Assembly: GCA_016196885.1 (NCBI GenBank)
Contig: JACPWU010000002.1
Location: forward strand, 22,358-86,357
Length of the DNA: 64,000 nucleotides
Direction: 5' to 3'
Source of the DNA: Chlamydiota bacterium
GTDB lineage: Bacteria; Auribacterota; JACPWU01
The translations under genes were made by a program, and so were the position numbers. Positions 7,807 through 54,832 of the stretch are shown here, one piece after another. The notes under the pieces are model-generated. The model worked only from the letters and a program-made list of their open reading frames with translations, was not told the origin of the DNA and made no database searches. How positions within the stretch are numbered: the stretch's first letter is position 1; the number at the start of each line of letters is the position of its first letter.

Positions 7807-8832
7807 ATGTCTGTACCGATTCGTCAAGTTTTGAAGGTAGGTTCTTATGTTTTTCGCCAGCGCTTGAAAAAAAATAAGCGCTATCCTCTGGTCTTGATGT
7901 TGGAACCTCTTTTTCGTTGTAATCTCGCCTGCCCGGGCTGCGGTAAAATTCAATACCCGACAGACATTTTAAGAAGGCATCTTTCCCCTGAGCAATGTTT
8001 TAAGGCAGTGGAAGAATGTGGGGCGCCCGTGATTTCTGTTGCTGGAGGAGAGCCTTTACTGCATCCGCAAATTGAGGAAATTGTGAGTGGCCTGATTGGG
8101 CGCAAGAAATTTATTTATCTTTGTACCAATGCCATTTTGCTTGAAAGGAATTTACATAAATTTAAGCCGTCGGTTTATTTGACCTTGAGTATTCACATGG
8201 ATGGCCTAGAAGAATTGCATGACAAGGCTGTGGATCGCCGAGGGGTTTTTAGAGAGGCCGTAGGTGCGATTCAAAAGGCGAAGGAGTTGGGGTTTCGCGT
8301 GACTACCAACACCACCGTTTTTGATGGGGTGAATCCTCAAGAGATGATAGATCTTTTTGATGGTCTGACAGATTTAGGAGTAGACGGGATGATGGTGTCT
8401 CCCGGGTATGCGTATGAGAAAGCACCCGATCAAGAGCATTTTCTGAAGCGAAACAAGACGAAGACCCTTTTCTCCAAAATTTTAGGTGAGGATGGAAAGG
8501 GCAAAAAGAGGTGGAGATTTAATCATTCTCCTTTGTATCTGGAATTTTTGACAGGGCAGCATGATTATGATTGTACCCCTTGGGGCAATCCCAATTACAG
8601 CGTCTTAGGGTGGCAGCGTCCTTGTTATCTGATGGCGGAAGGGGGGCATGTTGAAAGTTTTAAAGAGTTAATAGAGGGGACCGATTGGTCCGGCTATGGA
8701 TGTAAAAGTGGCAACCCCAAATGCCAAGATTGTATGGTTCACTCCGGTTATGAGCCCACTGCGGTCAATGATTCCATGACCAGTGTTTCTAAAGCGCTGA
8801 AGTCTTTGGCGGGTGCTTTGGGGATTCGGTAA
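7807..8832 (+). CDS. Radical SAM protein, HpnH-like (adenosylhopane synthase family, C-terminal DUF3463-like)
   Basis: [16 protein letters not shown] CxxxCxxC cluster near the N-terminus. Cys-rich C-terminus ([12 protein letters not shown]...QRPCYLM). Identification as HpnH is from remembered similarity, not a search. Confidence 0.55.
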
Positions 8833-8834
8833 AA

Positions 8835-8908
8835 GATGGCGTACAGCGTGCAGAAAACAAACCTTCCTTTTTTACTGTCCGCTCCGCGCTGAACGCTATA
8901 CGCTTCTT
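8835..8908. repeat. CAGCGTACAGCG-family word hairpin, copy 2
   Basis: atggcgtacagcgtgcag...ctgtccgctccgcgctgaacgctatacgc. Placed after the radical SAM stop, so it is terminator-like. Confidence 0.5.
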
Positions 8909-9324
8909 TTCAACTTTTTCTCAAGAAAAACGCACAGTTTTGTACGAAATTTGCATGAGAACCCTTCAAGCAAAATAAATTGTATTAAATTCAAAAATAT
9001 TTTTTTACCTCTTCTATCTCAATCGTGTCTATCTCAATGGGTAGATGGTGTAACGAGCAAGCCTCAGGAGGCAGTGATGAAACCATTAAAAGTTTCACAA
9101 CATGCTGAAGGTGAGGTTATTGCGTATTCTAAAGCCTGTCCGGATTCTTCCTCTCTTCAGGATCAACTTCATCTCGAAAATCTTCGGTTTTTGAAATCTG
9201 AGGGTATTCTTTCTAAACATGATCTTTTGGATCTTTCTGTCGTCATTCTGCGGACAAATTCAGAAGAATTTAAAAAAGTTTAGTTAAAATTTGCCGGGGC
9301 GCGTTTTTTAGAAGGGGGCGAGAC

Positions 9325-46107: not shown

Positions 46108-46899
46108 ATGCGAGACACCTTCCTTTGCGTCTTTCTTCATTCCCTGAGAGGTTTTCGCTATGTCTCTCTTGTGGTTCCATGGTCCGGCAAGCGGATCTTT
46201 GGATACTTATGCTTTCTGGGGTTGTGTTTTTCGCTGGTGTTTCTTTTTTTTCAACTTTCTCCTTTGATCAAGGGTCTAAACTCAACGACAGAATGGGCGA
46301 TTCATGAACTTCCGACGTTCAGAATTGAAAATGGGCATCTTCGAATTTTAGAAGAATCCTCTCCTAAAAAAGAATCAGAGTCCAAAAAAGTTTATCGTCC
46401 GGTATGGAATCAATCCTTTGCCCTTTGGTTGGATGAGAATGCTCAAGGTTCAGATTTAGCTCCTTACCCCTTTGGCATGATTTTGAAATCGGGCGAGATG
46501 ATTGTCAAAAGGGGACTCATGATTCAAAACGTTCACTATGGCCAGGATTTTTCTATCACCATTTCCCCGTATACCCTTCGGGAGGCTAGAGACATCCTCT
46601 TGTGGGTGTCTCCTCTTTTTCTCCTAGGGGCAGGCTGGTTCAATTTGGTTTTGATCAAGGGCCTGGAGGCCATTTTCTTAGGGACGTTGGCCTGTGTGGG
46701 GAGCCGGCTCTTTGGAAGAAAAATTTCCTGGAAATCCTCTTTTACCCTGGCTGTGGTGGCCTTAGCACCTGCTCTTCTTTTCTCATCGGTGCTGGGGATT
46801 TTTGGAATTTCCCTTCATTGGGGGAATCATTTTTATGATGGTCTTTATCTTCTCTTTTTTGGTGGGGCTTGTATTCAATGGGTGCGAGAGGTGAGATGA
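46108..46899 (+). CDS. Hypothetical integral membrane protein (possibly DUF1189-like) encoded between def and fmt
   Basis: 263 aa, several TM helices; wedged into the def-fmt operon. Confidence 0.45.
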   Translation: MRDTFLCVFLHSLRGFRYVSLVVPWSGKRIFGYLCFLGLCFSLVFLFFQLSPLIKGLNSTTEWAIHELPTFRIENGHLRILEESSPKKESESKKVYRPVWNQSFALWLDENAQGSDLAPYPFGMILKSGEMIVKRGLMIQNVHYGQDFSITISPYTLREARDILLWVSPLFLLGAGWFNLVLIKGLEAIFLGTLACVGSRLFGRKISWKSSFTLAVVALAPALLFSSVLGIFGISLHWGNHFYDGLYLLFFGGACIQWVREVR

Positions 46900-47834
46900 A
46901 AATTGTTTTTATGGGGACGCCGCACGTAGCGGCCCTGGCCTTGGAGGGGGTGGCAAGGCATTTTCCAATCACGGGGGTGGTGACTCAACCCGATCGGCCT
47001 CGAGGACGTGGGCTTCATGTTTTTCCCTCTCCTGTGAAGGAAATGGCCATTCGTTTGGGTCTTGCGGTTTTGGAACCCGTGAAAACAAGGGATCCCGTTT
47101 TTCTCGCAAATTTAAAAAGTTGGGCCCCTGATTTGATCGTGGTGGTGGCCTATGGTGGACTCTTGCCGCGCTCGGTTCTTGAAATTCCTTCCCTAGGTTG
47201 TGTGAACCTTCATTCTTCGCTTTTACCCAAATACCGCGGAGCGGCCCCGGTTCAATGGGCTTTTTTAAATGTGGAAAAGGAAACAGGATGGACCACTTTT
47301 TATCTTTCAGAGGGGATGGATTCTGGGGACATGATTCTTCAGAAAAAAATGTGGGTGCAACCTGAGGATGATGCCGCTTCTTTTTTTGAAAGGATGATTC
47401 CGTCAGGAATTGAATTGTTAAAAGAAACGATTCAGCAGGTTTTAAATGGAAGGGCGCCGCGCATCCCCCAAAATCATAGGGAGGCGACCCTCGCGCCTAA
47501 ATTAAGCAAGGCCGACGGAAAAATAGATTGGAATCAGTCGGCTGTTTCCCTTTGGAATCGGGTTCGCGGGCTTCTCCCCTGGCCTGTGGCCTTTACCTCC
47601 TTTGAATGGAAAGGGAAGTTGCATGAGTTACGCATTTTTAAGGCATCTGTCGAAACGGGAAAATCACCTGCGCCGGGTAAGATCTTAGAAATTCGTTTGG
47701 ATGGATTTTTGGTAGGGACGGGTCGGGATGCTTTATGGATTCAAGAAGTTCAGAAAGAAGGTTCTCGCCGGATGAGCGCGGAAGAATTTTTGAGAGGGCA
47801 TGCGATTGCGGTCGGGACTGTTTTAGGGAAATAA
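46899..47834 (+). CDS. fmt: Methionyl-tRNA formyltransferase
   Basis: Start at ATG 46899, overlapping the upstream TGA (MKIVFMGTP). HSSLLPKYRGAAPVQWA signature. Confidence 0.9.
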   Translation, partial: KIVFMGTPHVAALALEGVARHFPITGVVTQPDRPRGRGLHVFPSPVKEMAIRLGLAVLEPVKTRDPVFLANLKSWAPDLIVVVAYGGLLPRSVLEIPSLGCVNLHSSLLPKYRGAAPVQWAFLNVEKETGWTTFYLSEGMDSGDMILQKKMWVQPEDDAASFFERMIPSGIELLKETIQQVLNGRAPRIPQNHREATLAPKLSKADGKIDWNQSAVSLWNRVRGLLPWPVAFTSFEWKGKLHELRIFKASVETGKSPAPGKILEIRLDGFLVGTGRDALWIQEVQKEGSRRMSAEEFLRGHAIAVGTVLGK

Positions 47835-47940
47835 AACAAATTTCCAATAACAAATGTCAAATTAATTTCCAATTCTCCAATGACCCATTGGGGATTGGAG
47901 CATGGGTCATTCATTTGATATTTGTTATTGGAAATTGGTT
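47835..47940. repeat. CCAATGACC...GGGTCATTCATTTG element, copy 2
   Basis: tccaatgacccattggggattggagcatgggtcattcatttgatatttgttattggaaattgg, after the fmt stop. Confidence 0.55.
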
Positions 47941-47946
47941 ATTTCT

Positions 47947-48487
47947 ATGAGTCCTCGTGACGCTGCCTTTCACGCCCTTCAAAATTGGGAAAAGAAATCT
48001 TTGCCTATCTCTTACACCCTCGAGCCCTATTTTTTAAAGGCGAGTGAAGAAGATTTTTGAGAACATGAGGCGGTTGGGAATCAAAATGATTCTACCGATG
48101 GTGGCGGATGCGACGAAGATCAAAAATCTTTTTAAAATTCCTTTTGACCGCATTTTGGTAGATGTCCCGTGTTCTAATTGCGGAGTTTTTGCTAAAAGGG
48201 TCGAGGCCCGCTGACGGTTTTCTATGAAAGAAGTCAAGCGCTTGGCTGCGTTACAGATTCAAATTTTAAAAGAGGCGCTTCGGCTTCTAAAGTCAGGGGG
48301 GATTTTGGTGTATTCTACGTGCAGCATTGATCCTATCGAAAATGAGGAAGTGGTTCGAGCTTCCTTGAAAGACCAAGCTCAATTCCAGCTCACCGATGAA
48401 AAAACAATATTTCAAACTCTTCAGCAGGCGGGGGGCTATTGGGCAAAGATAAGACTTTCCCTTGACAAGGGCGCTTTCCTAATTTAG
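47947..48487 (+). pseudogene. rsmB: 16S rRNA m5C967 methyltransferase remnant with large internal deletions, a frame break and an in-frame TGA
   Basis: Pieces in order: NusB-like N-terminus MSPRDAAFHALQNWEK; FDRILVDVPCSNCGVFAKRVEAR-TGA-RFSM...; C-terminal GGILVYSTCSIDPIENEEVV. The TGA aligns with the conserved Trp of DAPCSxTGVxRRHPDIKW. Canonical def-fmt-rsmB synteny. Confidence 0.6.
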
Positions 48488-48518
48488 ATTGAGTCTCAAT
48501 TAAACCCAGGAGTGTCAG

Positions 48519-49925
48519 ATGTTTGAATCGTTCATTATTACCTTGAGAGAAGGGATTGAGGCCTCCCTGGTGATCGGCATCCTTTTGGGGATTTTGAAAA
48601 AAATCTCGAGGGAGGACCTCGTTCGCTTCGTTTACGGGGGTGTGGGGGCCGCGGTCGTGGCCAGTGGCCTGGGGGCTCTTTTCCTCCAATCCTTTGTCAT
48701 CAATGAAGAGGTGTATGAAGGGACCCTTTACCTTGTCGCCGCTTTTTTTGTGATCACCATGCTTTGTTGGATGCGCCGGCATGCCAGAACATTAAAGGGA
48801 GAAATTGAAACGGCTGTTCATCACATGACAGGTGGAGCCCAGAAAAAAGGAGAGGCCTGGGGAATTTTTGCCTTCACCTTTTTCATGGTTTTTCGGGAAG
48901 GGGTTGAGACGGTTCTTTTTTTAAGTGCCGTGGGTCTTACCACGCAAAAGCTTTTGTCTTTTATCGCAGGACTGTTGGGTCTGGTGCTGGCCGTTCTTTT
49001 CTGCGTGGCTTTTGTGAAGGGGACCCTGCGGATTGATTTGGGGAGATTTTTCCGGGTGAGCACCGCCGTTTTATGGATTTTTGTTTTTCAATTGTGGGTC
49101 AATGGTTTTCACGAATTGTCCGAAGCTCAAATTTTACCTGCCAGTCAAAGGGAGATGGCCCTTGTAGGACCTTTGGTTAGAAACAATGCCTTTTTTATTT
49201 TGGCCATTCTGGCGATTCCCATTTTTATTTTTTTATTCTCTGCTCGGAAAAGGGAAAATTTACCCGATGAAATGTCAGGCCCTGAACGCAGACTGGCGTT
49301 GTCCAAGGCGAAAAGTGAAAGGCGCTGGCGTTTCAGTTGGTCGGCTGTCTCTTTTTTGATTCTTCTGTCTTTGGGGGCGCATACCGTTTATTCCAATCGG
49401 TCTGAAAAAATAGACCCTCCCCTTCTCGTAGAAAGCCAAGGCGGCTCGATTAAAATTCCTCTTTCTGAAGTAAATGATGGAAGGCTTCATCGGTTTGGCT
49501 TGAATGTTGGGGAAGGCATGGTTCGTTTTCTTGTCATTAAAACCAGCGATGATCGTTATCGAACAGCCTTTGATCTTTGCGAAATCTGTGGAGATTATGG
49601 CTATCGCCAAGAAGGTGAGAATATTATTTGTCTCAATTGTACGGCGGCCATCCATCCTCCGACAATGGGTGTGGCAGGGGGATGCAATCCCATTCCTTTA
49701 CAATCGTGGGTCGAGGGAGGGGAGCTTTTGGTTAAAGAGACAGATTTAAAAGTGTTTCAAGATCATTTCAAAATGAAGGTGCTACCGGAAGTGACGTGCA
49801 CCCTTTGTCACATGAAATTACATTTTGAAGAGGCAAAAGAAATAAAGGCGAAGGGAAAAACTTTTTATCTTTGTCCGATGGAATCTTGCCAAAAAGAATT
49901 TGAGAAACGGTATTTGAATTATTAA
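48519..49925 (+). CDS. FTR1/EfeU-family iron permease fused to a C-terminal Cys-rich (DUF2318-like) domain
   Basis: Two REGxE motifs (TLREGIEASL, VFREGVETVL) in the TM helices. C-terminal 200 aa with CEICGDYGY...CLNCTAAIHPP...GGCNPIP...CTLCHMKLH...CPMESC. Confidence 0.7.
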   Translation: MFESFIITLREGIEASLVIGILLGILKKISREDLVRFVYGGVGAAVVASGLGALFLQSFVINEEVYEGTLYLVAAFFVITMLCWMRRHARTLKGEIETAVHHMTGGAQKKGEAWGIFAFTFFMVFREGVETVLFLSAVGLTTQKLLSFIAGLLGLVLAVLFCVAFVKGTLRIDLGRFFRVSTAVLWIFVFQLWVNGFHELSEAQILPASQREMALVGPLVRNNAFFILAILAIPIFIFLFSARKRENLPDEMSGPERRLALSKAKSERRWRFSWSAVSFLILLSLGAHTVYSNRSEKIDPPLLVESQGGSIKIPLSEVNDGRLHRFGLNVGEGMVRFLVIKTSDDRYRTAFDLCEICGDYGYRQEGENIICLNCTAAIHPPTMGVAGGCNPIPLQSWVEGGELLVKETDLKVFQDHFKMKVLPEVTCTLCHMKLHFEEAKEIKAKGKTFYLCPMESCQKEFEKRYLNY

Positions 49926-49964
49926 AAACTAATTTGGACGAAATTATTTTTAGAGACTTTTCCT

Positions 49965-51227
49965 ATGCTCTTACGAATCCTCAGTGAATCTTTCATGCGT
50001 CGCAAGCGGCGCAAAATACTGGGTGTTTTTGCCGTTTCCCTGGGCGCCAGCCTGGCGACGGCGGTGATTGGGATTTCCTTGGAAGTGGGAGATAAGGTGA
50101 GTCGTGAATTGAATGTTTATGGCTCGAATATCGTGGTTCATCCTTCGGATATTGTAGATGAAGAAGAGGGCCCCGTTCTGGGACAGCCCAGGCTCGACGA
50201 ATCGGACCTTCCCAAAATGAAAACGATTTTCTGGGGCAATAACATCATGGATTTTGCCCCTTTTCTTTTGAGCGAGGTTACCCTCAAGGGCGAGACAATT
50301 TCTATTGAAGGAACATGGTTCTCTAAAGAAATGAGTGTCCCAGATGGCCCATCCGTTAGAACGGGAGTCGAAACCCTTTTCCCTACCTGGCATGTGGAAG
50401 GGTCTTGGCCTCGAGATGATCAGGCCTTGAGAGAGGTGCTCGTAGGAAAAGAGATCGCGGCCCAGTTTAATATTCATCCTTCTCAAAAAATCACGATTGA
50501 GAAAAACGGAAAACCACTTGAGGTTTTAGCAACAGGAATTTTAAATTCGGGAGAGCAATACGATTCGAAAATTTTGGTGGATTTAGATTTGGCCCAAGGG
50601 CTCACTGGACTTCCTAAGGGAGTGGACCAAGTTTTCGTTCGAGCGCTCACCATTCCAGAAGATGATTTTCTGAAGCTTTACGCGCGTCATCCGCAGTCTC
50701 TTTCTCCTCAAGAGTATGAACGGTGGTCATGTTCCCCTTATGTCAGTACCGTTGCGGCTCAGCTTCAGGAGGCGATTGCGCATGCGGTTGCAGAGCCCAT
50801 TCTTGAAGTTTCTCAAAGAGAAGGGGTTTTGCTTAAAAAGCTCAAAGGACTTTTTATTTTTATTTGTGCAGTTGCTTTATTAGCCGCTGGAGTTGCTTTA
50901 ACCACTGTTTTAATGGCCACGGTGGTAGAAAGGCGTCAGGAGGTCGGGCTTTTAAGGGCTTTAGGCGCAGGCTCCAAAGATGTGGTTTTAATTTTTCTAT
51001 CTGAATTGGCTGTCATGGCCATCCTCGGATCTTTTTTGGGGGGGGCCTTAGGCTATGGATTGGGACAATGGATATCCTTTCATTTGTTTCACTCTTTTAT
51101 TCAACCTAATCCGATGGTTCTCTTTATTGTTGCGGGAGTGACATTGACCATCTCTCTTATGGGAGGCCTTTTCCCTATACGATTTGCCCTCAAAGTAGAC
51201 CCTGTGAGAGTCTTGCATGAAATTTAA
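49965..51227 (+). CDS. ABC transporter permease, FtsX/MacB-type (N-terminal TM, periplasmic domain, C-terminal FtsX 3-TM)
   Basis: C-terminal LRALGAGSKDVVLIFLSELAVMAILGSFLG FtsX-domain signature. Confidence 0.75.
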   Translation: MLLRILSESFMRRKRRKILGVFAVSLGASLATAVIGISLEVGDKVSRELNVYGSNIVVHPSDIVDEEEGPVLGQPRLDESDLPKMKTIFWGNNIMDFAPFLLSEVTLKGETISIEGTWFSKEMSVPDGPSVRTGVETLFPTWHVEGSWPRDDQALREVLVGKEIAAQFNIHPSQKITIEKNGKPLEVLATGILNSGEQYDSKILVDLDLAQGLTGLPKGVDQVFVRALTIPEDDFLKLYARHPQSLSPQEYERWSCSPYVSTVAAQLQEAIAHAVAEPILEVSQREGVLLKKLKGLFIFICAVALLAAGVALTTVLMATVVERRQEVGLLRALGAGSKDVVLIFLSELAVMAILGSFLGGALGYGLGQWISFHLFHSFIQPNPMVLFIVAGVTLTISLMGGLFPIRFALKVDPVRVLHEI

Positions 51228-52332
51228 AATGTTTTTAAAACTTTGTTTTGCTTCGATTTCTCATCAAAAGGGTAAATCAGCTTTGATGATGATTGTTTCT
51301 GTTATGGCCGTTGCGGTGACCACCAGTCTCTTGGGATTGATTTATGATGTTCGGCTTCAAATGCAAAAGGAACTCATGGCCTTTGGCCCTAATTTTAAAG
51401 TCCAACCTCAATGGAATACCATTGGCAACATGATTTCGTGGGCCCAGTACGACGAAATTGAAAAAATGTTTTTCAGGCCAGATGCAATTATTTGCCCTGT
51501 TTTAGCGGGTGTGGTGTTGTGGAAAGATCGCTCTCAATTAATAGAAGGCGTTTTATTAGATGCTTACCAAAAGATTTCCAAGCATTGGATAGTGGAAGGT
51601 ACATGGCCAAATAAGCCAGGAGAAGTTTTAGTGGGAGAAAAAGTCGCTCAGAAATTTCATTTAAAGTTGGGAGAGACTTTGACTTTTGATCAGTCCTCTC
51701 AAGCTTTTTTGATTCGAGGTTTTTTTCGATCAGGGACCCGAGAAGAAGAAAAAATAGTTTTCTCAATGAAAGGCGCGCAAAAAATTTTAAAAGAGGAAAA
51801 AAACTTTTCATTTGTTTTTGCCAGATTAAACAATTCTCTTCAGGAATTAGAAAATTTAAGCGAAAATATTGAAAAACATTTTCCTGATTTAAAGGCGGTT
51901 CCTATTCGAAGGGTTTCTTTGGCGGAGGGAGCGATTCTAGATCGTATTGGCAGTTTAGTGGGATGGGTGAATATCCTGATTTTGATGGTTGCTGCGTTGG
52001 CTTTGATGGCGACTTCAACAGTTTTGGTGGATGAGCGCCGTGAAGAGTTTGGCTTGCAGCGGGCCTTGGGAGCAAGTCCCGCTCAATTGATGCGGCTTTT
52101 TTACATGGAAACTTTTTTGAGTGCCTTCATCGTTTCACCCCTTGGTTTTTTACTAGGATTCTGGGGGCTAAAAATATTGGCTTATGAGGTTTTTTCGGCT
52201 CAAGCGACTTTTCGGTGGGAAATGGTTCCTGTGATTTTGATTGTTTTAATGGTTGTCATTCTTCTAGGAGAGAGTGTGGCTGTGAGAAGAATTGCGACCC
52301 TTGAGCCGGCGATGGTTTTAAAAGGGGAGTAA
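51217..52332 (+). CDS. ABC transporter permease, FtsX/MacB-type (second copy)
   Basis: C-terminal QRALGASPAQLMRLFYMETFLSAFIVSPLGF. Overlaps the upstream gene by 11 nt. Confidence 0.75.
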   Translation: MKFKMFLKLCFASISHQKGKSALMMIVSVMAVAVTTSLLGLIYDVRLQMQKELMAFGPNFKVQPQWNTIGNMISWAQYDEIEKMFFRPDAIICPVLAGVVLWKDRSQLIEGVLLDAYQKISKHWIVEGTWPNKPGEVLVGEKVAQKFHLKLGETLTFDQSSQAFLIRGFFRSGTREEEKIVFSMKGAQKILKEEKNFSFVFARLNNSLQELENLSENIEKHFPDLKAVPIRRVSLAEGAILDRIGSLVGWVNILILMVAALALMATSTVLVDERREEFGLQRALGASPAQLMRLFYMETFLSAFIVSPLGFLLGFWGLKILAYEVFSAQATFRWEMVPVILIVLMVVILLGESVAVRRIATLEPAMVLKGE

Positions 52333-52370
52333 ATGAGTAAAGGACGATGGACGATGGAAGATGGACGAAG

Positions 52371-53444
52371 ATGAGCAGCCTTATTCAAGCAAAAAATTTA
52401 ACGCGTCGTTATAGTGACCATGTCATGGCCCTCGATCATGTAGATTTAACAGTTGAACGAGGTGAATGGCTTGCCATGATGGGGCCTTCTGGGTCTGGGA
52501 AGACGACCTTGCTGAATTTATTGGGTTGTTTGGATCGTCCCACGGAGGGAGAAATTTTCTTTGAAAATCGTTTGATCAGTACTTTCAGTGCTCAAGAGTT
52601 GAATCGCTTTCGCCGCGAAAATGTAGGGATCGTTTTTCAGCAATTTCATTTGATTGGTTATTTGACGGCCCTGGAAAATGTAATGTTGGCTCAGTATTAT
52701 CACAGCATGGTCGATCGTGAGGAGGCAAAGCGTGCCCTAGAGGATGTCGGATTGGGTGAGCGGATTCATCATTATCCGTCACAACTTTCGGGAGGGGAGC
52801 AACAGCGGGTTTGCGTGGCCCGGGCCTTGATTAATCAGCCTAAATTGATTTTGGCAGATGAACCTACAGGAAATTTGGACGAGAAAAGCGAAGAGACGGT
52901 GCTGGATCTTTTTCGGCGTTTGCACGCAAAGGGACACACTATTTTAATGGTCACGCATGACGTGACCGTTGGAAAAATGGCGGATCGTCAACTGCAATTG
53001 GAACACGGAAGAATAGCAGGATCTTATTTAAGTCCCCTTCAAGCAGAGGAGGATATTGAGAATTTTCTCAAGCGCTTATGGGAATTACGTGAAGAGGGTA
53101 AGCTTTCGTATGACTATTTGCAGAAAAATAATTTTTTGGATCATGCGGGTGTTTTGAAATACATGCAGGCCAAAGAACTTTTGGAAGTGAAAGATCGAAA
53201 AATCTATTTTACTTCAGCAGGTGAGCTTCGTATGAGAGATATCATTCGTCGCCACCGGCTGGCCGAAATACTTTTTTCTAAAGCTTTACACATGGATAAA
53301 GAAGAGTCGGCTGTTGAGGCCTGTCAATTTGAGCACATGCTCAATCCCGATATCACAGAAAGAATCTGTACTTTTTTTCATCATCCAAAGAAATGTCCTC
53401 ATGGGAAGGAAATTCCTGGAGGGAAATGCTGTGAAAGACCGTAG
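52371..53444 (+). CDS. ABC ATPase (LolD/MacB-like) fused in frame to a C-terminal DtxR/MntR-like metalloregulator module
   Basis: Walker A GPSGSGKTTL, signature LSGGEQQRV, Walker B ILADEPT. Then LWELREEGK...RRHRLAEILF...EACQFEHMLNPDITERICTFFHHPKKCPHGKEIP, matching DtxR-family dimerisation/metal-site motifs (RRHRL, EH, CPHGxxIP). Confidence 0.7.
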   Translation: MSSLIQAKNLTRRYSDHVMALDHVDLTVERGEWLAMMGPSGSGKTTLLNLLGCLDRPTEGEIFFENRLISTFSAQELNRFRRENVGIVFQQFHLIGYLTALENVMLAQYYHSMVDREEAKRALEDVGLGERIHHYPSQLSGGEQQRVCVARALINQPKLILADEPTGNLDEKSEETVLDLFRRLHAKGHTILMVTHDVTVGKMADRQLQLEHGRIAGSYLSPLQAEEDIENFLKRLWELREEGKLSYDYLQKNNFLDHAGVLKYMQAKELLEVKDRKIYFTSAGELRMRDIIRRHRLAEILFSKALHMDKEESAVEACQFEHMLNPDITERICTFFHHPKKCPHGKEIPGGKCCERP

Positions 53445-53449
53445 CTCGT

Positions 53450-53528
53450 CTTTCGTCGTTCGTCTTCCGTTTATAAGCAAGAAGTTAGTAACGGACGACG
53501 AACAACTAACGAAGAACGACGAACAAAA
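53450..53528. repeat. Word hairpin CGTCGTTCG / CGAACGACG (related to the GTACTTCG family)
   Basis: gtagctcgtctttcgtcgttcgtcttccg...cggacgacgaacaactaacgaagaacgacgaac, between the ABC gene and hemL. Confidence 0.5.
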
Positions 53529-53554
53529 ATTGTTCAAAAGAAAAACAGGTTGTT

Positions 53555-54832
53555 ATGAACCCCTATCATGGCTTATGGCTTAAGGCTCAAGAATTAATGC
53601 CCGGCGGTGTCAACAGTCCCGTACGGGCTTTTAAGTCTGTGGGGCTTGATCCGCTGATTGTTTCCAAAGCCAAGGGTTCCAAAATTTATGATGTTCGAGG
53701 CAAGGCCTATTTGGATTTGGTCATGTCCTGGGGACCTTTGATTTTAGGGCATGCGCATCCTGAGATTTTGAAAGCAGTAAAAGAGGCTTTGGAGGAGGGG
53801 TCTAGCTTTGGTGCCTTGTCTCATCGCGAAATTCTCTTGGCTGAGGCGATTTGTAACGCGCTGCCTTCCCTTGAAAAAATCCGTTTTGTCAGTTCGGGAA
53901 CAGAAGCGGCCATGACAGCCATTCGTTTGGCGCGGGCTTTTACTGGAAGGGATAAAATGATCAAGTTCGAAGGTTGCTATCACGGCCATTCCGATTTTCT
54001 TTTGGCCAAGGCGGGCTCTGGCCTTGCGACTTACAGTCTCGCAGGAAGCGCGGGGATTCCTAAAGAGGTTTTGAAATCTACGCTTGTTCTGCCATTCAAT
54101 GATTGGGTGGCTCTTGAAAAAACAATGAATCGCTTCGGTCGTGAAATCGCCTGTATTTTGGTAGAACCCATTCCCGCCAACATGGGCTTGGTGTTTCCCG
54201 AAAAGGATATGCTTAAGACCTTAAGAAAAATGTGTACGCAAAAAGGAATCCTTTTAATCTTTGACGAAGTGATCACAGGTTTTCGAGTCGGATACGGAGG
54301 CGCACAAGAGCTTTATCACGTTCAACCTGATTTAACTATTTTAGGGAAAATCATTGGCGGCGGATTTCCCGTGGGTGCTGTCGGTGGGCGTAAAGAAATC
54401 ATGGATCAATTGGCACCTTTGGGACCCGTGTATCAAGCAGGAACCCTTTCTGGAAATCCGGTGGCCATGGCTGCGGGATTAAAAACTTTGGAAATTCTGA
54501 AGAGAAAAGGCGCTTATGAAAAACTTGAAAAGCTGGGCGCAACTCTTGCTGGTGGTCTCGAAGAAATATTAAAGAAGAAAAAAATTTCCTTTCAGCTCCA
54601 TCGCATCGGCTCCATGATGACTCTCTTTTTTAATGATCGGCCGATTGAGAATTATCAGGATGTATTACAATGTAATACAGAAAAATTTAATCAATTCTTT
54701 AGAGAGATGTTTCGAAAAAGAATTTTCCTTCCTCCCTCTGCCTTTGAAACCTGGTTTTTGAGCTTGAGCCACTCTGCTCAAGACATCGAGAGCTTCTTAA
54801 AGGCAGCTGACCAGACGTTCAAGGCTTATTAA
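53555..54832 (+). CDS. hemL: Glutamate-1-semialdehyde 2,1-aminomutase
   Basis: LMPGGVNSPVRAF, FDEVITGFRVGYGGAQE, GKIIGGGFPVGA (PLP-Lys). Confidence 0.9.
   Translation: MNPYHGLWLKAQELMPGGVNSPVRAFKSVGLDPLIVSKAKGSKIYDVRGKAYLDLVMSWGPLILGHAHPEILKAVKEALEEGSSFGALSHREILLAEAICNALPSLEKIRFVSSGTEAAMTAIRLARAFTGRDKMIKFEGCYHGHSDFLLAKAGSGLATYSLAGSAGIPKEVLKSTLVLPFNDWVALEKTMNRFGREIACILVEPIPANMGLVFPEKDMLKTLRKMCTQKGILLIFDEVITGFRVGYGGAQELYHVQPDLTILGKIIGGGFPVGAVGGRKEIMDQLAPLGPVYQAGTLSGNPVAMAAGLKTLEILKRKGAYEKLEKLGATLAGGLEEILKKKKISFQLHRIGSMMTLFFNDRPIENYQDVLQCNTEKFNQFFREMFRKRIFLPPSAFETWFLSLSHSAQDIESFLKAADQTFKAY

Follow-up and report, generated by a model that had tools for sequence, protein, structure and literature searches.

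The closest described relatives of the locus analysed here are the Fet clusters for iron acquisition. In Campylobacter jejuni the system comprises eight genes, fetMP-fetABCDEF (cj1658-1665), and it also occurs in Escherichia coli, Salmonella and Yersinia (FetMP-Fls/Flp). Its FTR1 permease is FetM and its P19 is FetP, FetB and FetC are permeases, FetD is an ATPase and FetE and FetF are thioredoxins (PMC6083913, PMC10783030). FetA is a 467-residue protein with eight transmembrane (TM) helices and periplasmic DUF2318 and YHS domains (PMC10783030). Growth of C. jejuni in low iron requires each of the four genes fetA, fetB, fetC and fetD (PMC10783030, PMC6083913), and the organism also requires FetP and FetE/F (PMC10783030). 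P19 and the accessory genes are always adjacent in canonical clusters (PMC6083913): the survey of Liu et al. found P19 and a separate FTR1 gene in 33 of 33 clusters (PMC6083913), and Gram-positive and spirochaete clusters also have a flavin mononucleotide (FMN)-binding protein (Liu 2018, PMC6083913). Here we analyse a four-gene locus from an environmental Chlamydiota bacterium (GTDB Auribacterota, JACPWU01) that lies in a 64,000-nt stretch of contig JACPWU010000002.1 (assembly GCA_016196885.1, positions 22,358 to 86,357), referred to below as the window, whose own numbering is used throughout. It appears to encode a compact Fet-family system in which an FTR1 core is joined to the periplasmic module of FetA and the ATPase carries a DtxR-like domain.

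A partner in the periplasm, either an oxidase or a metal-binding protein (Fet3, EfeO/EfeB, P19 or FtrA/FtrB), is generally considered necessary for FTR1-family permeases, and this locus is without an adjacent one. The characterised members of the family are described as oxidase-dependent, for example Ftr1p with Fet3p and FtrC with FtrA and FtrB (PMC11966278). With two FTR1-type systems for Fe2+ uptake, EfeUOB of E. coli and FtrABCD of Brucella and Bordetella, the locus shares a minimal, EfeU-like FTR1 core of seven TM helices and the expected role of iron-regulated uptake, but it lacks EfeO/EfeB, FtrA (P19) and the FtrB cupredoxin, and it is coupled to an ATP-binding cassette (ABC) machine, whereas uptake by FtrABCD is reported to be ATP-independent (PMC11966278).

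The locus consists of four co-directional, closely packed open reading frames (ORFs) on the forward strand (48519-53444) of 468, 420, 371 and 365 residues, arranged to all appearances like an operon, with spacers of 39 nt between ORF1 and ORF2 and of 14 nt between ORF3 and ORF4, and with the first 11 nt of ORF3 shared with ORF2. ORF4 spans 52347-53444, and an independent gene call on an identical contig starts it at Met9 (357 residues). Pfam assigned ORF1 to FTR1 (residues 1-203, 114.7 bits, cutoff 25.3) and DUF2318 (PF10080, now named FtrD-like; residues 318-417, 98.2 bits, cutoff 26.3), ORF2 to FtsX (PF02687), ORF3 to MacB_PCD plus FtsX, and ORF4 to ABC_tran plus Fe_dep_repr_C (PF02742, residues 289-357, 78.8 bits, cutoff 27). 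Because the ORFs are long and match curated models strongly, the locus is no chance pattern. These results agree with a first-pass annotation, made from the letters and ORF translations, which had read the gene order as an FTR1 permease with two REGxE motifs, two FtsX-like permeases and an ABC ATPase. Its further proposal, that this order mirrors the Campylobacter series ftr1-p19-DUF2318-FtsX-FtsX-ATPase, held up when we compared the locus with the complete Fet cluster on E. coli plasmid pEK499, our canonical reference.

In common with the Fet system, the locus has a DUF2318 domain with the same cysteine motif after a TM helix, followed by a module in the YHS/TRASH position; FetB-, FetC- and FetD-like genes in order; an FTR1 permease with two REGxE motifs; and, upstream, a putative box of the iron-regulator type. 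It differs from that system in having no P19/FetP, FetE/F thioredoxins or FMN protein and no separate FetM, the FTR1 core being covalently joined to the FetA periplasmic module, and in the DtxR-like core borne by its FetD-like ATPase. The four genes most likely form an uptake operon for a metal, in all probability iron. Membership in the Fet family and probable iron regulation are well supported, and the mechanism set out below is one that we infer from them. With moderate confidence, we read the locus as a self-contained, streamlined four-gene Fet-family iron uptake system that works by this mechanism.

The evidence for the FTR1 core comes from motifs, profiles and models. The motifs REGIE (residues 10-14, TM1) and REGVE (residues 126-130, TM4) lie inside helices 2-28 and 109-137 of an AlphaFold2 model, and R10, E11, G12 and E14 as well as R126, E127, G128 and E130 are invariant in the 30 diverse homologues used to assess conservation in ORF1. 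In the model (predicted local distance difference test score, pLDDT, 77 overall and about 90 over DUF2318) the FTR1 core has seven helices; a long eighth helix follows, and after it a beta-rich domain. Lysines and arginines number 20 in the loops predicted to be cytoplasmic and 2 in the short periplasmic loops. The modelled protein thus fits an N-out topology with eight TM helices and a periplasmic DUF2318 domain and C-terminal tail, as proposed for FetA. EfeU is the best NCBIfam model but its orthology cutoffs were missed (NF041756, 141.8 bits against 255; TIGR00145, 128.9 against 303.8), and we classify the core as a member of the FTR1/OFeT family (PF03239) that is EfeU-like and minimal, not as an EfeU orthologue. 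FetM's own FTR1 core (residues 365-572) can be aligned with residues 4-205 of ORF1 (27% identity, E 8e-16), both REGxE motifs being in register; the N-terminal extension of FetM (~360 residues) is lacking from ORF1.

The second half of ORF1 corresponds to FetA. Residues 257-463 align with E. coli FetA residues 235-443 (30% identity, E 3e-26) in a match that takes in the TM helix ahead of DUF2318, and the domain has the motif C354-x2-C357-x13-C371-x2-C374-x14-C389, all five cysteines of which are invariant. The motif CxxC-x13-CxxC-x14/15-C has been published for C. jejuni FetA (PMC6083913), and the spacing in ORF1 matches it exactly. The DUF2318-like module that the first-pass annotation had placed at the C-terminus of the FTR1 protein is therefore well founded, and its own stated ground for doubt, a tail without similarity to DUF2318, did not materialise (PF10080, E 3e-28). 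That annotation had also counted about 12 cysteines with CxxC pairs in the tail; the pairs are there (at 354, 371 and 427), and the count is corrected to 11 in the whole of ORF1, of which 9 are C-terminal, after residue 350.

Foldseek searches of the PDB with the DUF2318 domain returned, as nearly all top matches, Rieske [2Fe-2S] domains of ring-hydroxylating oxygenases, at probabilities of 0.9-0.99 and E values of only 0.06-0.5 (the best of them 0.96-0.99 and 0.06-0.1). As a lead from the model, we suggest that DUF2318 may be a Rieske-like or rubredoxin-knuckle metal or redox domain with all-cysteine ligation. The first-pass annotation had suggested a redox or ferrireductase function for the Cys-rich tail, which it may have. 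A sequence search for a solved structure of ORF1 gave none, its one match being a spurious PHD finger (E 0.048). Beyond DUF2318, the last 45 residues form a four-cysteine module with sub-threshold TRASH (E 0.004) and zinc-ribbon matches and no Pfam YHS match. This region aligns with the YHS domain of E. coli FetA, and many homologues at 47-51% identity have a Pfam YHS match (PF04945) at the same place; the module differs from the Cys-less YHS domain of E. coli FetA in its four, TRASH-like cysteines.

A degenerate FTR1 domain in the N-terminal seven-TM region of FetA itself was considered and rejected. An hhalign comparison of 113 enterobacterial FetA N-termini with 121 FTR1 regions of the fused family gave a probability of 0.4% and an E value of 0.16, from alignments of low diversity that give no proof of absence; full-length hhalign and a tblastn extension to FetA residue 174 rest on the C-terminal match. 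Pfam found no FTR1 domain in E. coli FetA or in 120 FetA homologues. Because FetA has the same length and eight TM helices, the term fusion is better put as an FTR1 core in place of FetA's membrane domain. Judged by these comparisons, the best description is that an EfeU-like FTR1 core appears to occupy the place of FetA's own, undetectably related polytopic domain.

The three downstream genes match the remaining ABC components of the Fet system. ORF2 is 37% identical to pEK499 FetB over 425 residues (290 bits, against 29 bits for E. coli LolE), ORF3 is 29% identical to FetC over 350 residues (172 bits, against 29 bits for LolE) and ORF4 is 57% identical to FetD (259 bits), compared with 43% and 175 bits for LolD. 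The FetB and FetC assignments are reciprocal-best within the pair, and the order B, C, D is kept. Orthologues of ORF2 show a weak MacB_PCD match. In Foldseek searches, the nucleotide-binding domain (NBD) of ORF4 matched those of MacB, LolD, FtsE, HrtA and YbbA with template-modelling scores of 0.88-0.92 and E values of ~1e-24. Together, these scores identify ORF2 to ORF4 as FetBCD counterparts, an ABC machine of the MacB/FtsX type (type VII). Like MacB, LolCDE, FtsEX, HrtBA, BceAB and YbbAP, it has four-TM FtsX permeases with a periplasmic domain between TM1 and TM2, and its NBD is nearest to theirs; unlike them, the complex is heterodimeric and FetB/FetC-like, and an FTR1-DUF2318 protein is its constant partner. 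NCBIfam scores far below the cutoffs, together with the 29-bit LolC/E match, led us to reject orthology to LolCDE, MacB or FtsEX.

The DtxR-like domain that the first-pass annotation had reported on the ATPase was found both by Pfam, as Fe_dep_repr_C, and by phmmer against PDB sequences, in which residues 237-358 of ORF4 align with residues 10-136 of IdeR/DtxR (E 6e-12). The tail thus reads as the whole two-domain DtxR core, winged helix plus metal-binding and dimerisation domain, beyond the C-terminal domain alone. An AlphaFold2 model of ORF4 (pLDDT 85.7) shows the order a1-a2-a3-wing-a4-a5-a6, with the helix-turn-helix (HTH) segment least confident (pLDDT 64-79). Across 120 family members the metal-binding and dimerisation half is highly conserved (mean 0.69), and H303, E307, C326, E329 and H330, which correspond to DtxR H79, E83, C102, E105 and H106, are invariant or nearly so. 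Five of the seven DtxR ligands are thus kept, three of the primary site (C102, E105 and H106) and two of the ancillary site (H79 and E83); the equivalents of primary-site M10 and ancillary H98 are N239 and A322. In the same members the HTH segment is the least conserved part of the tail, at 10-40% per column; phmmer aligns it to IdeR residues 10-70 and the Pfam model PF01325 gives no match on the tail even at E values up to 10. There is no SH3-like/FeoA third domain, and ORF4 ends 8 residues after the PF02742 match.

Since the DtxR ligands are conserved and the HTH is divergent, a metal-sensing regulatory role on the transporter is favoured for the tail, which would act by trans-inhibition through metal-driven dimerisation. 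The C2 domain of MetN, ModC and MalK provide examples of a ligand-binding, dimerising C-terminal NBD domain placed to couple a cytosolic ligand to NBD closure. By analogy, the ligand here would be a metal ion, the tail being DtxR-like and not of the ACT or OB type. The fold matches listed for the NBD include one C-terminal regulatory domain, that of MetN, which is unrelated; none is of the DtxR type. At the C-terminal end of ORF4 (53367-53432, residues 341-362) there is also an invariant cluster of cysteines and histidines, C341, H346, C350, H352, C361 and C362, which has no counterpart in DtxR/IdeR and may be an extra metal site.

A nitrospirotal locus (L010) encodes the DtxR-like module as a stand-alone gene (8290-9003) just upstream of the fused FTR1-DUF2318 gene. 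This protein has Fe_dep_repr_C and FeoA matches and no Pfam-detectable HTH and retains part of the cysteine/histidine cluster; the ATPase of the same locus has no tail, and a Fur-like gene lies nearby. On this gene arrangement we regard L010 as a Rosetta-stone link between the DtxR-like module and the operon. In Chlamydia trachomatis YtgC-YtgR, a DtxR-family module with conserved DtxR ligands is likewise fused to a metal-related ABC subunit, but that fusion is on the permease (PMC5599777) whereas here it is on the ATPase. The two also differ in that the ABC machine here is of type VII (MacB/FtsX-like) instead of an MntABC/Znu-type importer, that the HTH is poorly conserved and that many bacteria other than Chlamydiae have the fusion (among them Acidobacteriota, Planctomycetota and Latescibacterota).

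Upstream of ORF1, the sequence TTGACA-17-TAGATT is the best sigma-70-like match in 47700-53700 (10 of 12 positions), and its agreement with the consensus makes it the putative promoter. The perfect palindrome ATTGAGTCTCAAT overlaps its -10 hexamer and occurs as a single exact copy in the window. Two chlamydial relatives have the identical 13-mer in the spacer between fur and hemP (L001, 4168-4180; L087, 4858-4870), and a variant with one or two changed bases lies immediately upstream of fur; none of the remaining 86 loci has the exact 13-mer. The palindrome carries weight because its exact match recurs across genomes, not because of window statistics. As the exact 13-mer is retained at promoters even though the proteins of these relatives are only 61-74% identical, we argue that it is an operator. 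Its extended form, GAgATTGAG-T-CTCAATaTC, agrees at 13 of 19 positions with the classical E. coli Fur-box consensus. The palindrome at fur itself fits Fur autoregulation, so Fur is the most likely binder, and transcription of the operon would most likely be iron-repressed.

Palindromes of related type were seen in other groups. Acidobacterial loci (many of L018-L085) have a conserved Fur-box-like palindrome, TTGAAATTGAAATTCATTTTCAA, with extended forms up to 33 bp; it sits 20-50 bp ahead of the fused gene and, over this whole set, at distances of 17-145 bp. In planctomycetes (L002-L004) the palindrome is AATTGAG-N7-CTCAATT, which has the half-sites found in the window at another spacing.

The architecture is the standard form of a large family and is not peculiar to this genome. 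Homologues of ORF1 fall into more than 2600 clusters, with members from Acidobacteria, Planctomycetes, Verrucomicrobia, Geobacter, KSB1 and Latescibacteria; among the matches listed, FTR1 and FtrD-like domains occur together in 120 of 120, many of them also with YHS, and ABC_tran plus Fe_dep_repr_C likewise in 120 of 120 listed homologues of ORF4, where the closest named relative comes from a 'Chlamydiae bacterium' metagenome-assembled genome (74% identity). GTDB species genomes contain at least 542 stretches related to the locus. We surveyed synteny in 84 loci from at least 8 phyla, with flanks of up to 10 kb in which ORFs were called and searched with Fet, Efe and accessory proteins. An FTR1-DUF2318 gene followed by FetB/C-like genes was found in all 84, the ATPase in 77 and the ATPase-DtxR fusion in 64. 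Two chlamydial relatives have fur-hemP-DUF6662 directly before the cassette and hemL after it. In two chlamydial relatives (L001, 6808-7901; P0002 contig) genes for an FMN_bind protein and an Aq_1264_TM membrane protein directly precede the fused gene; both are absent from the window. An FTR1-DUF2318 fusion is mentioned in neither of the two Fet papers (PMC6083913, PMC10783030), the first of which is the one paper in the library searched that names both DUF2318 and FTR1, and the fused variant appears to be undescribed, although databases contain many copies of it with generic names. In 36 of the 84 loci, mostly acidobacterial, the FTR1-DUF2318 gene is preceded on the same strand by a second ABC ATPase gene (two such genes in one locus).

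Known partners were sought in the window and in the surveyed loci. In the window, tblastn gave no match to E. coli P19/FetP, EfeO, EfeB, a TlpA-type thioredoxin or an NqrC-like FMN_bind protein (best E at least 0.24; for P19/FetP, 0.61), in line with the first-pass annotation, which had listed no P19/EfeO or thioredoxin gene. Nor did the window contain a second FTR1 gene or separate FetM, the sole FTR1 match in tblastn being the N-terminus of ORF1. P19, EfeO and EfeB were found within 10 kb in none of the 84 loci; with the queries used, a TlpA-like gene was detectable in 2 and FMN_bind in 1.

In the mechanism that we propose, the tethered periplasmic Cys-rich domain would capture iron and redox-cycle it or hand it over, in place of a soluble P19 or cupredoxin partner, and the FTR1 core would move the iron across the membrane. 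The FetBCD-like complex would carry no metal; it would turn cytoplasmic ATP hydrolysis into conformational or redox work on the Cys domain in the periplasm. As cytosolic Fe2+ rises, it would bind the conserved Cys/Glu/His site of the tail, and because two NBDs carry two tails, metal-driven dimerisation of the tails could throttle the ATPase, most likely as trans-inhibition, with a repressor function of the tail as the less likely alternative. Transcription would start from TTGACA-17-TAGATT and be repressed when cells are replete with iron, a regulator (most likely Fur) then occupying ATTGAGTCTCAAT. The boldest form of this proposal, a partner-free, ATP-coupled FTR1 importer in which a type VII (mechanotransmission) ABC machine drives the passing-on of metal or redox reactions at a Rieske-like, all-cysteine tethered domain and cytosolic Fe2+ gates the ATPase through a DtxR-derived domain that does not bind DNA, is tentative, and we would not call it probable.

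Several observations weigh against these proposals. The FTR1 family also includes PbrT-type lead transporters, and the metal specificity of the locus is inferred. The Rieske similarity is weak, and the cysteines of DUF2318 may instead form disulfides or bind Zn, Fe or Cu; a conventional Fe-S cluster is uncertain because the domain is predicted to be periplasmic, where it would call for a dedicated route of assembly or export. With up to 2 mismatches allowed, the palindrome is not enriched in the window (2 found, 4.9 expected). A P19, cupredoxin or multicopper-oxidase partner could lie outside the 64-kb window or the 10-kb flanks, and the FMN_bind and Aq_1264_TM genes of the chlamydial relatives hint that an electron donor may be needed that is missing or lies elsewhere here. 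Moreover, the biochemical role of FetABCD is unknown even in model organisms (PMC6083913, PMC10783030).

The rival explanations concern the partner, the tail, the metal and the ABC genes. The locus may not be self-sufficient: a ferroxidase of the P19, cupredoxin or multicopper-oxidase type, a thioredoxin or FMN protein, or both, could be encoded at another place in the genome, in which case the lack of a partner would be a matter of gene location. The oxidase dependence of characterised FTR1 permeases (PMC11966278), the requirement of C. jejuni for FetP and FetE/F (PMC10783030), the FMN_bind and Aq_1264_TM genes of the two relatives and the fact that the part of the genome inspected is 64 kb all speak for such a partner; however, P19, EfeO and EfeB are absent within 10 kb in all surveyed loci although they are adjacent in canonical clusters (PMC6083913), and a linkage lost across at least 8 phyla together with a DUF2318 domain tethered to the permease is the expected look of partner replacement. 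An outside partner is thus a possibility that we take seriously and on balance doubt. A different question is whether the tail is a true transcriptional repressor in the style of YtgC-YtgR, proteolytically released or tethered, that binds ATTGAGTCTCAAT and autoregulates the operon, with no brake on the ATPase. Such a role would suit an alignment that spans the entire IdeR/DtxR DNA-binding and dimerisation core, the complete winged-helix topology of the AlphaFold2 model, the position of the palindrome and the free protein encoded beside the operon in L010, and Chlamydia offers a precedent, a DtxR-like domain that is cleaved off an ABC subunit and represses its own operon in an Fe2+-dependent manner (reviewed in PMC5599777). 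We nevertheless think it rather unlikely, although a serious rival: the HTH is poorly conserved beside the 69% mean of the metal and dimerisation domain and has no PF01325 match, and planctomycete loci with a tail-less ATPase still have an upstream palindrome of the same half-sites. The palindrome also lies upstream of fur and hemP in relatives and resembles a Fur box, not the consensus of a DtxR/IdeR operator.

The substrate could be another metal (Mn, Zn, Cu or Pb), or the system could serve export or detoxification instead of iron import. There are non-iron transporters in the FTR1 family, TRASH/YHS domains and CxxC motifs are common in copper and zinc proteins and the tail of ORF1 has weak TRASH and zinc-ribbon matches; MacB-type ABC systems are usually exporters or extractors, and in planctomycetes the cassette has a CzcCBA-type efflux system on one side and a P-type ATPase on the other. 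This explanation seems to us quite improbable, given that both REGxE iron-permease motifs are invariant, that the closest characterised homologues are iron-acquisition genes, that chlamydial relatives tie the cassette to fur and hemP, that the operator is Fur-box-like and that the tail of ORF4 has a cysteine at the DtxR C102 position, which is typical of Fe-responsive and not Mn-responsive members; a repressor site over the -10 box, for its part, suits an uptake gene that metal turns off. Finally, the first-pass annotation had itself pointed out that the FtsX and ATPase genes might belong to a Lol- or MacB-type system with no relation to metal uptake; on this reading they would be an envelope system that happens to adjoin an FTR1 gene. 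The top NCBIfam models are indeed LolD/FtsE/MacB for ORF4 and ADOP/LolCE/YbbP for ORF2 and ORF3, yet all score far below their equivalog cutoffs, the full-length FetB, FetC and FetD matches far exceed the Lol controls, FetB precedes FetC as in the Fet system, the genes stand directly downstream of the fused gene in 84 of 84 loci and no lipoprotein or efflux adaptor genes adjoin the operon. We consider this possibility refuted, with next to no chance of being right.

Table 1 Positions of features of the four-gene locus within the window
Feature	Start	End	Strand	Remarks
Promoter-like site TTGACA-17 nt-TAGATT	48462	48490	+	29 nt upstream of ORF1 start codon
Candidate iron-regulator operator, perfect palindrome ATTGAG-T-CTCAAT (ATTGAGTCTCAAT)	48488	48500	.	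overlaps -10 hexamer
Putative ribosome-binding site AGGAG	48508	48512	+	6 nt before ATG
ORF1, FTR1 core + TM8 + periplasmic DUF2318/FtrD-like domain + TRASH-like Cys tail (predicted)	48519	49925	+	468 aa
FTR1 permease core, 7 TM helices	48519	49244	+	Pfam, motifs, AlphaFold2 model
DUF2318/FtrD-like domain, aa 318-417, predicted periplasmic	49470	49769	+	PF10080, E 3e-28
C-terminal 4-Cys module C427-x2-C430-x21-C452-x4-C457	49788	49898	+	position of FetA YHS domain
ORF2, FetB-like FtsX-type permease	49965	51227	+	420 aa, Pfam FtsX
ORF3, FetC-like FtsX-type permease, MacB-like periplasmic core domain	51217	52332	+	371 aa
ORF4 N-terminal part, FetD-like type VII ABC ATPase domain	52347	53021	+	
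ORF4 C-terminal part, DtxR/IdeR-like core (aa 234-365)	53046	53444	+	
Structured RNA/hairpin region, ATPase stop to hemL	53429	53510	+	folding energy

The flanking genes are housekeeping genes: def, a gene for a membrane protein with DUF1189, fmt and a degraded rsmB on the 5' side, and hemL followed by sucDC (opposite strand) on the 3' side (coordinates of the locus itself are collected in Table 1). The DUF1189 gene (46108-46899) sits between def and fmt, which are usually neighbours. Directly after fmt, a near-perfect hairpin of ~105 nt (47835-47940; minimum free energy (MFE) -47.4 kcal/mol, z -7.8), the arm sequence of which has no other copy in the window, could be a terminator or a small inverted-repeat element at a rearrangement point. 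Between fmt and the operon, rsmB (16S rRNA methyltransferase) is present as fragments only (47929-48487), an N-terminal piece of ~37 codons that ends in a stop and then an 87-residue ORF matching positions 108-168 of the 199 in the RsmB-F profile; this remnant occupies the place of fur-hemP-DUF6662 in the chlamydial relatives. A second, independent assembly of this organism (SRR12113387; L090) has the identical locus together with the remnant, which is therefore no assembly error. On the other side, the region between the ATPase stop codon and hemL (53429-53510) folds with an MFE of -36.8 kcal/mol (z -3.65), equally stable shuffles numbering 0 of 200, and includes a terminator-like match (53431-53456) without a strong T-run as well as repeated words of the CGACGAAC type. 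It may be the operon terminator or a leader element of hemL.

The family to which this locus belongs is very large, unstudied and common among uncultured bacteria, spanning Acidobacteriota, Planctomycetota, Nitrospirota, Omnitrophota, Chlamydiota and others. As a system of four genes, it lets one ask what the Cys domain binds or reduces, what the ABC motor is for and how flux is limited. If the gated, partner-free importer proves true, the locus would be a natural 'minimal Fet system' of four genes that reveals the actual function of FetABCD, and its tail the first known case of an ABC ATPase with a metal-sensing module for trans-inhibition. For chlamydial biology, the ATPase adds a second fusion of a DtxR-type domain to an ABC subunit, next to YtgCR, in a lineage that still has Fur. 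The family also suggests that bacteria of soils and sediments acquire iron by a route missing from present annotation, in which the genes carry the labels 'FTR1 family protein', 'Fe-S-containing protein' and 'putative ABC transport system'.

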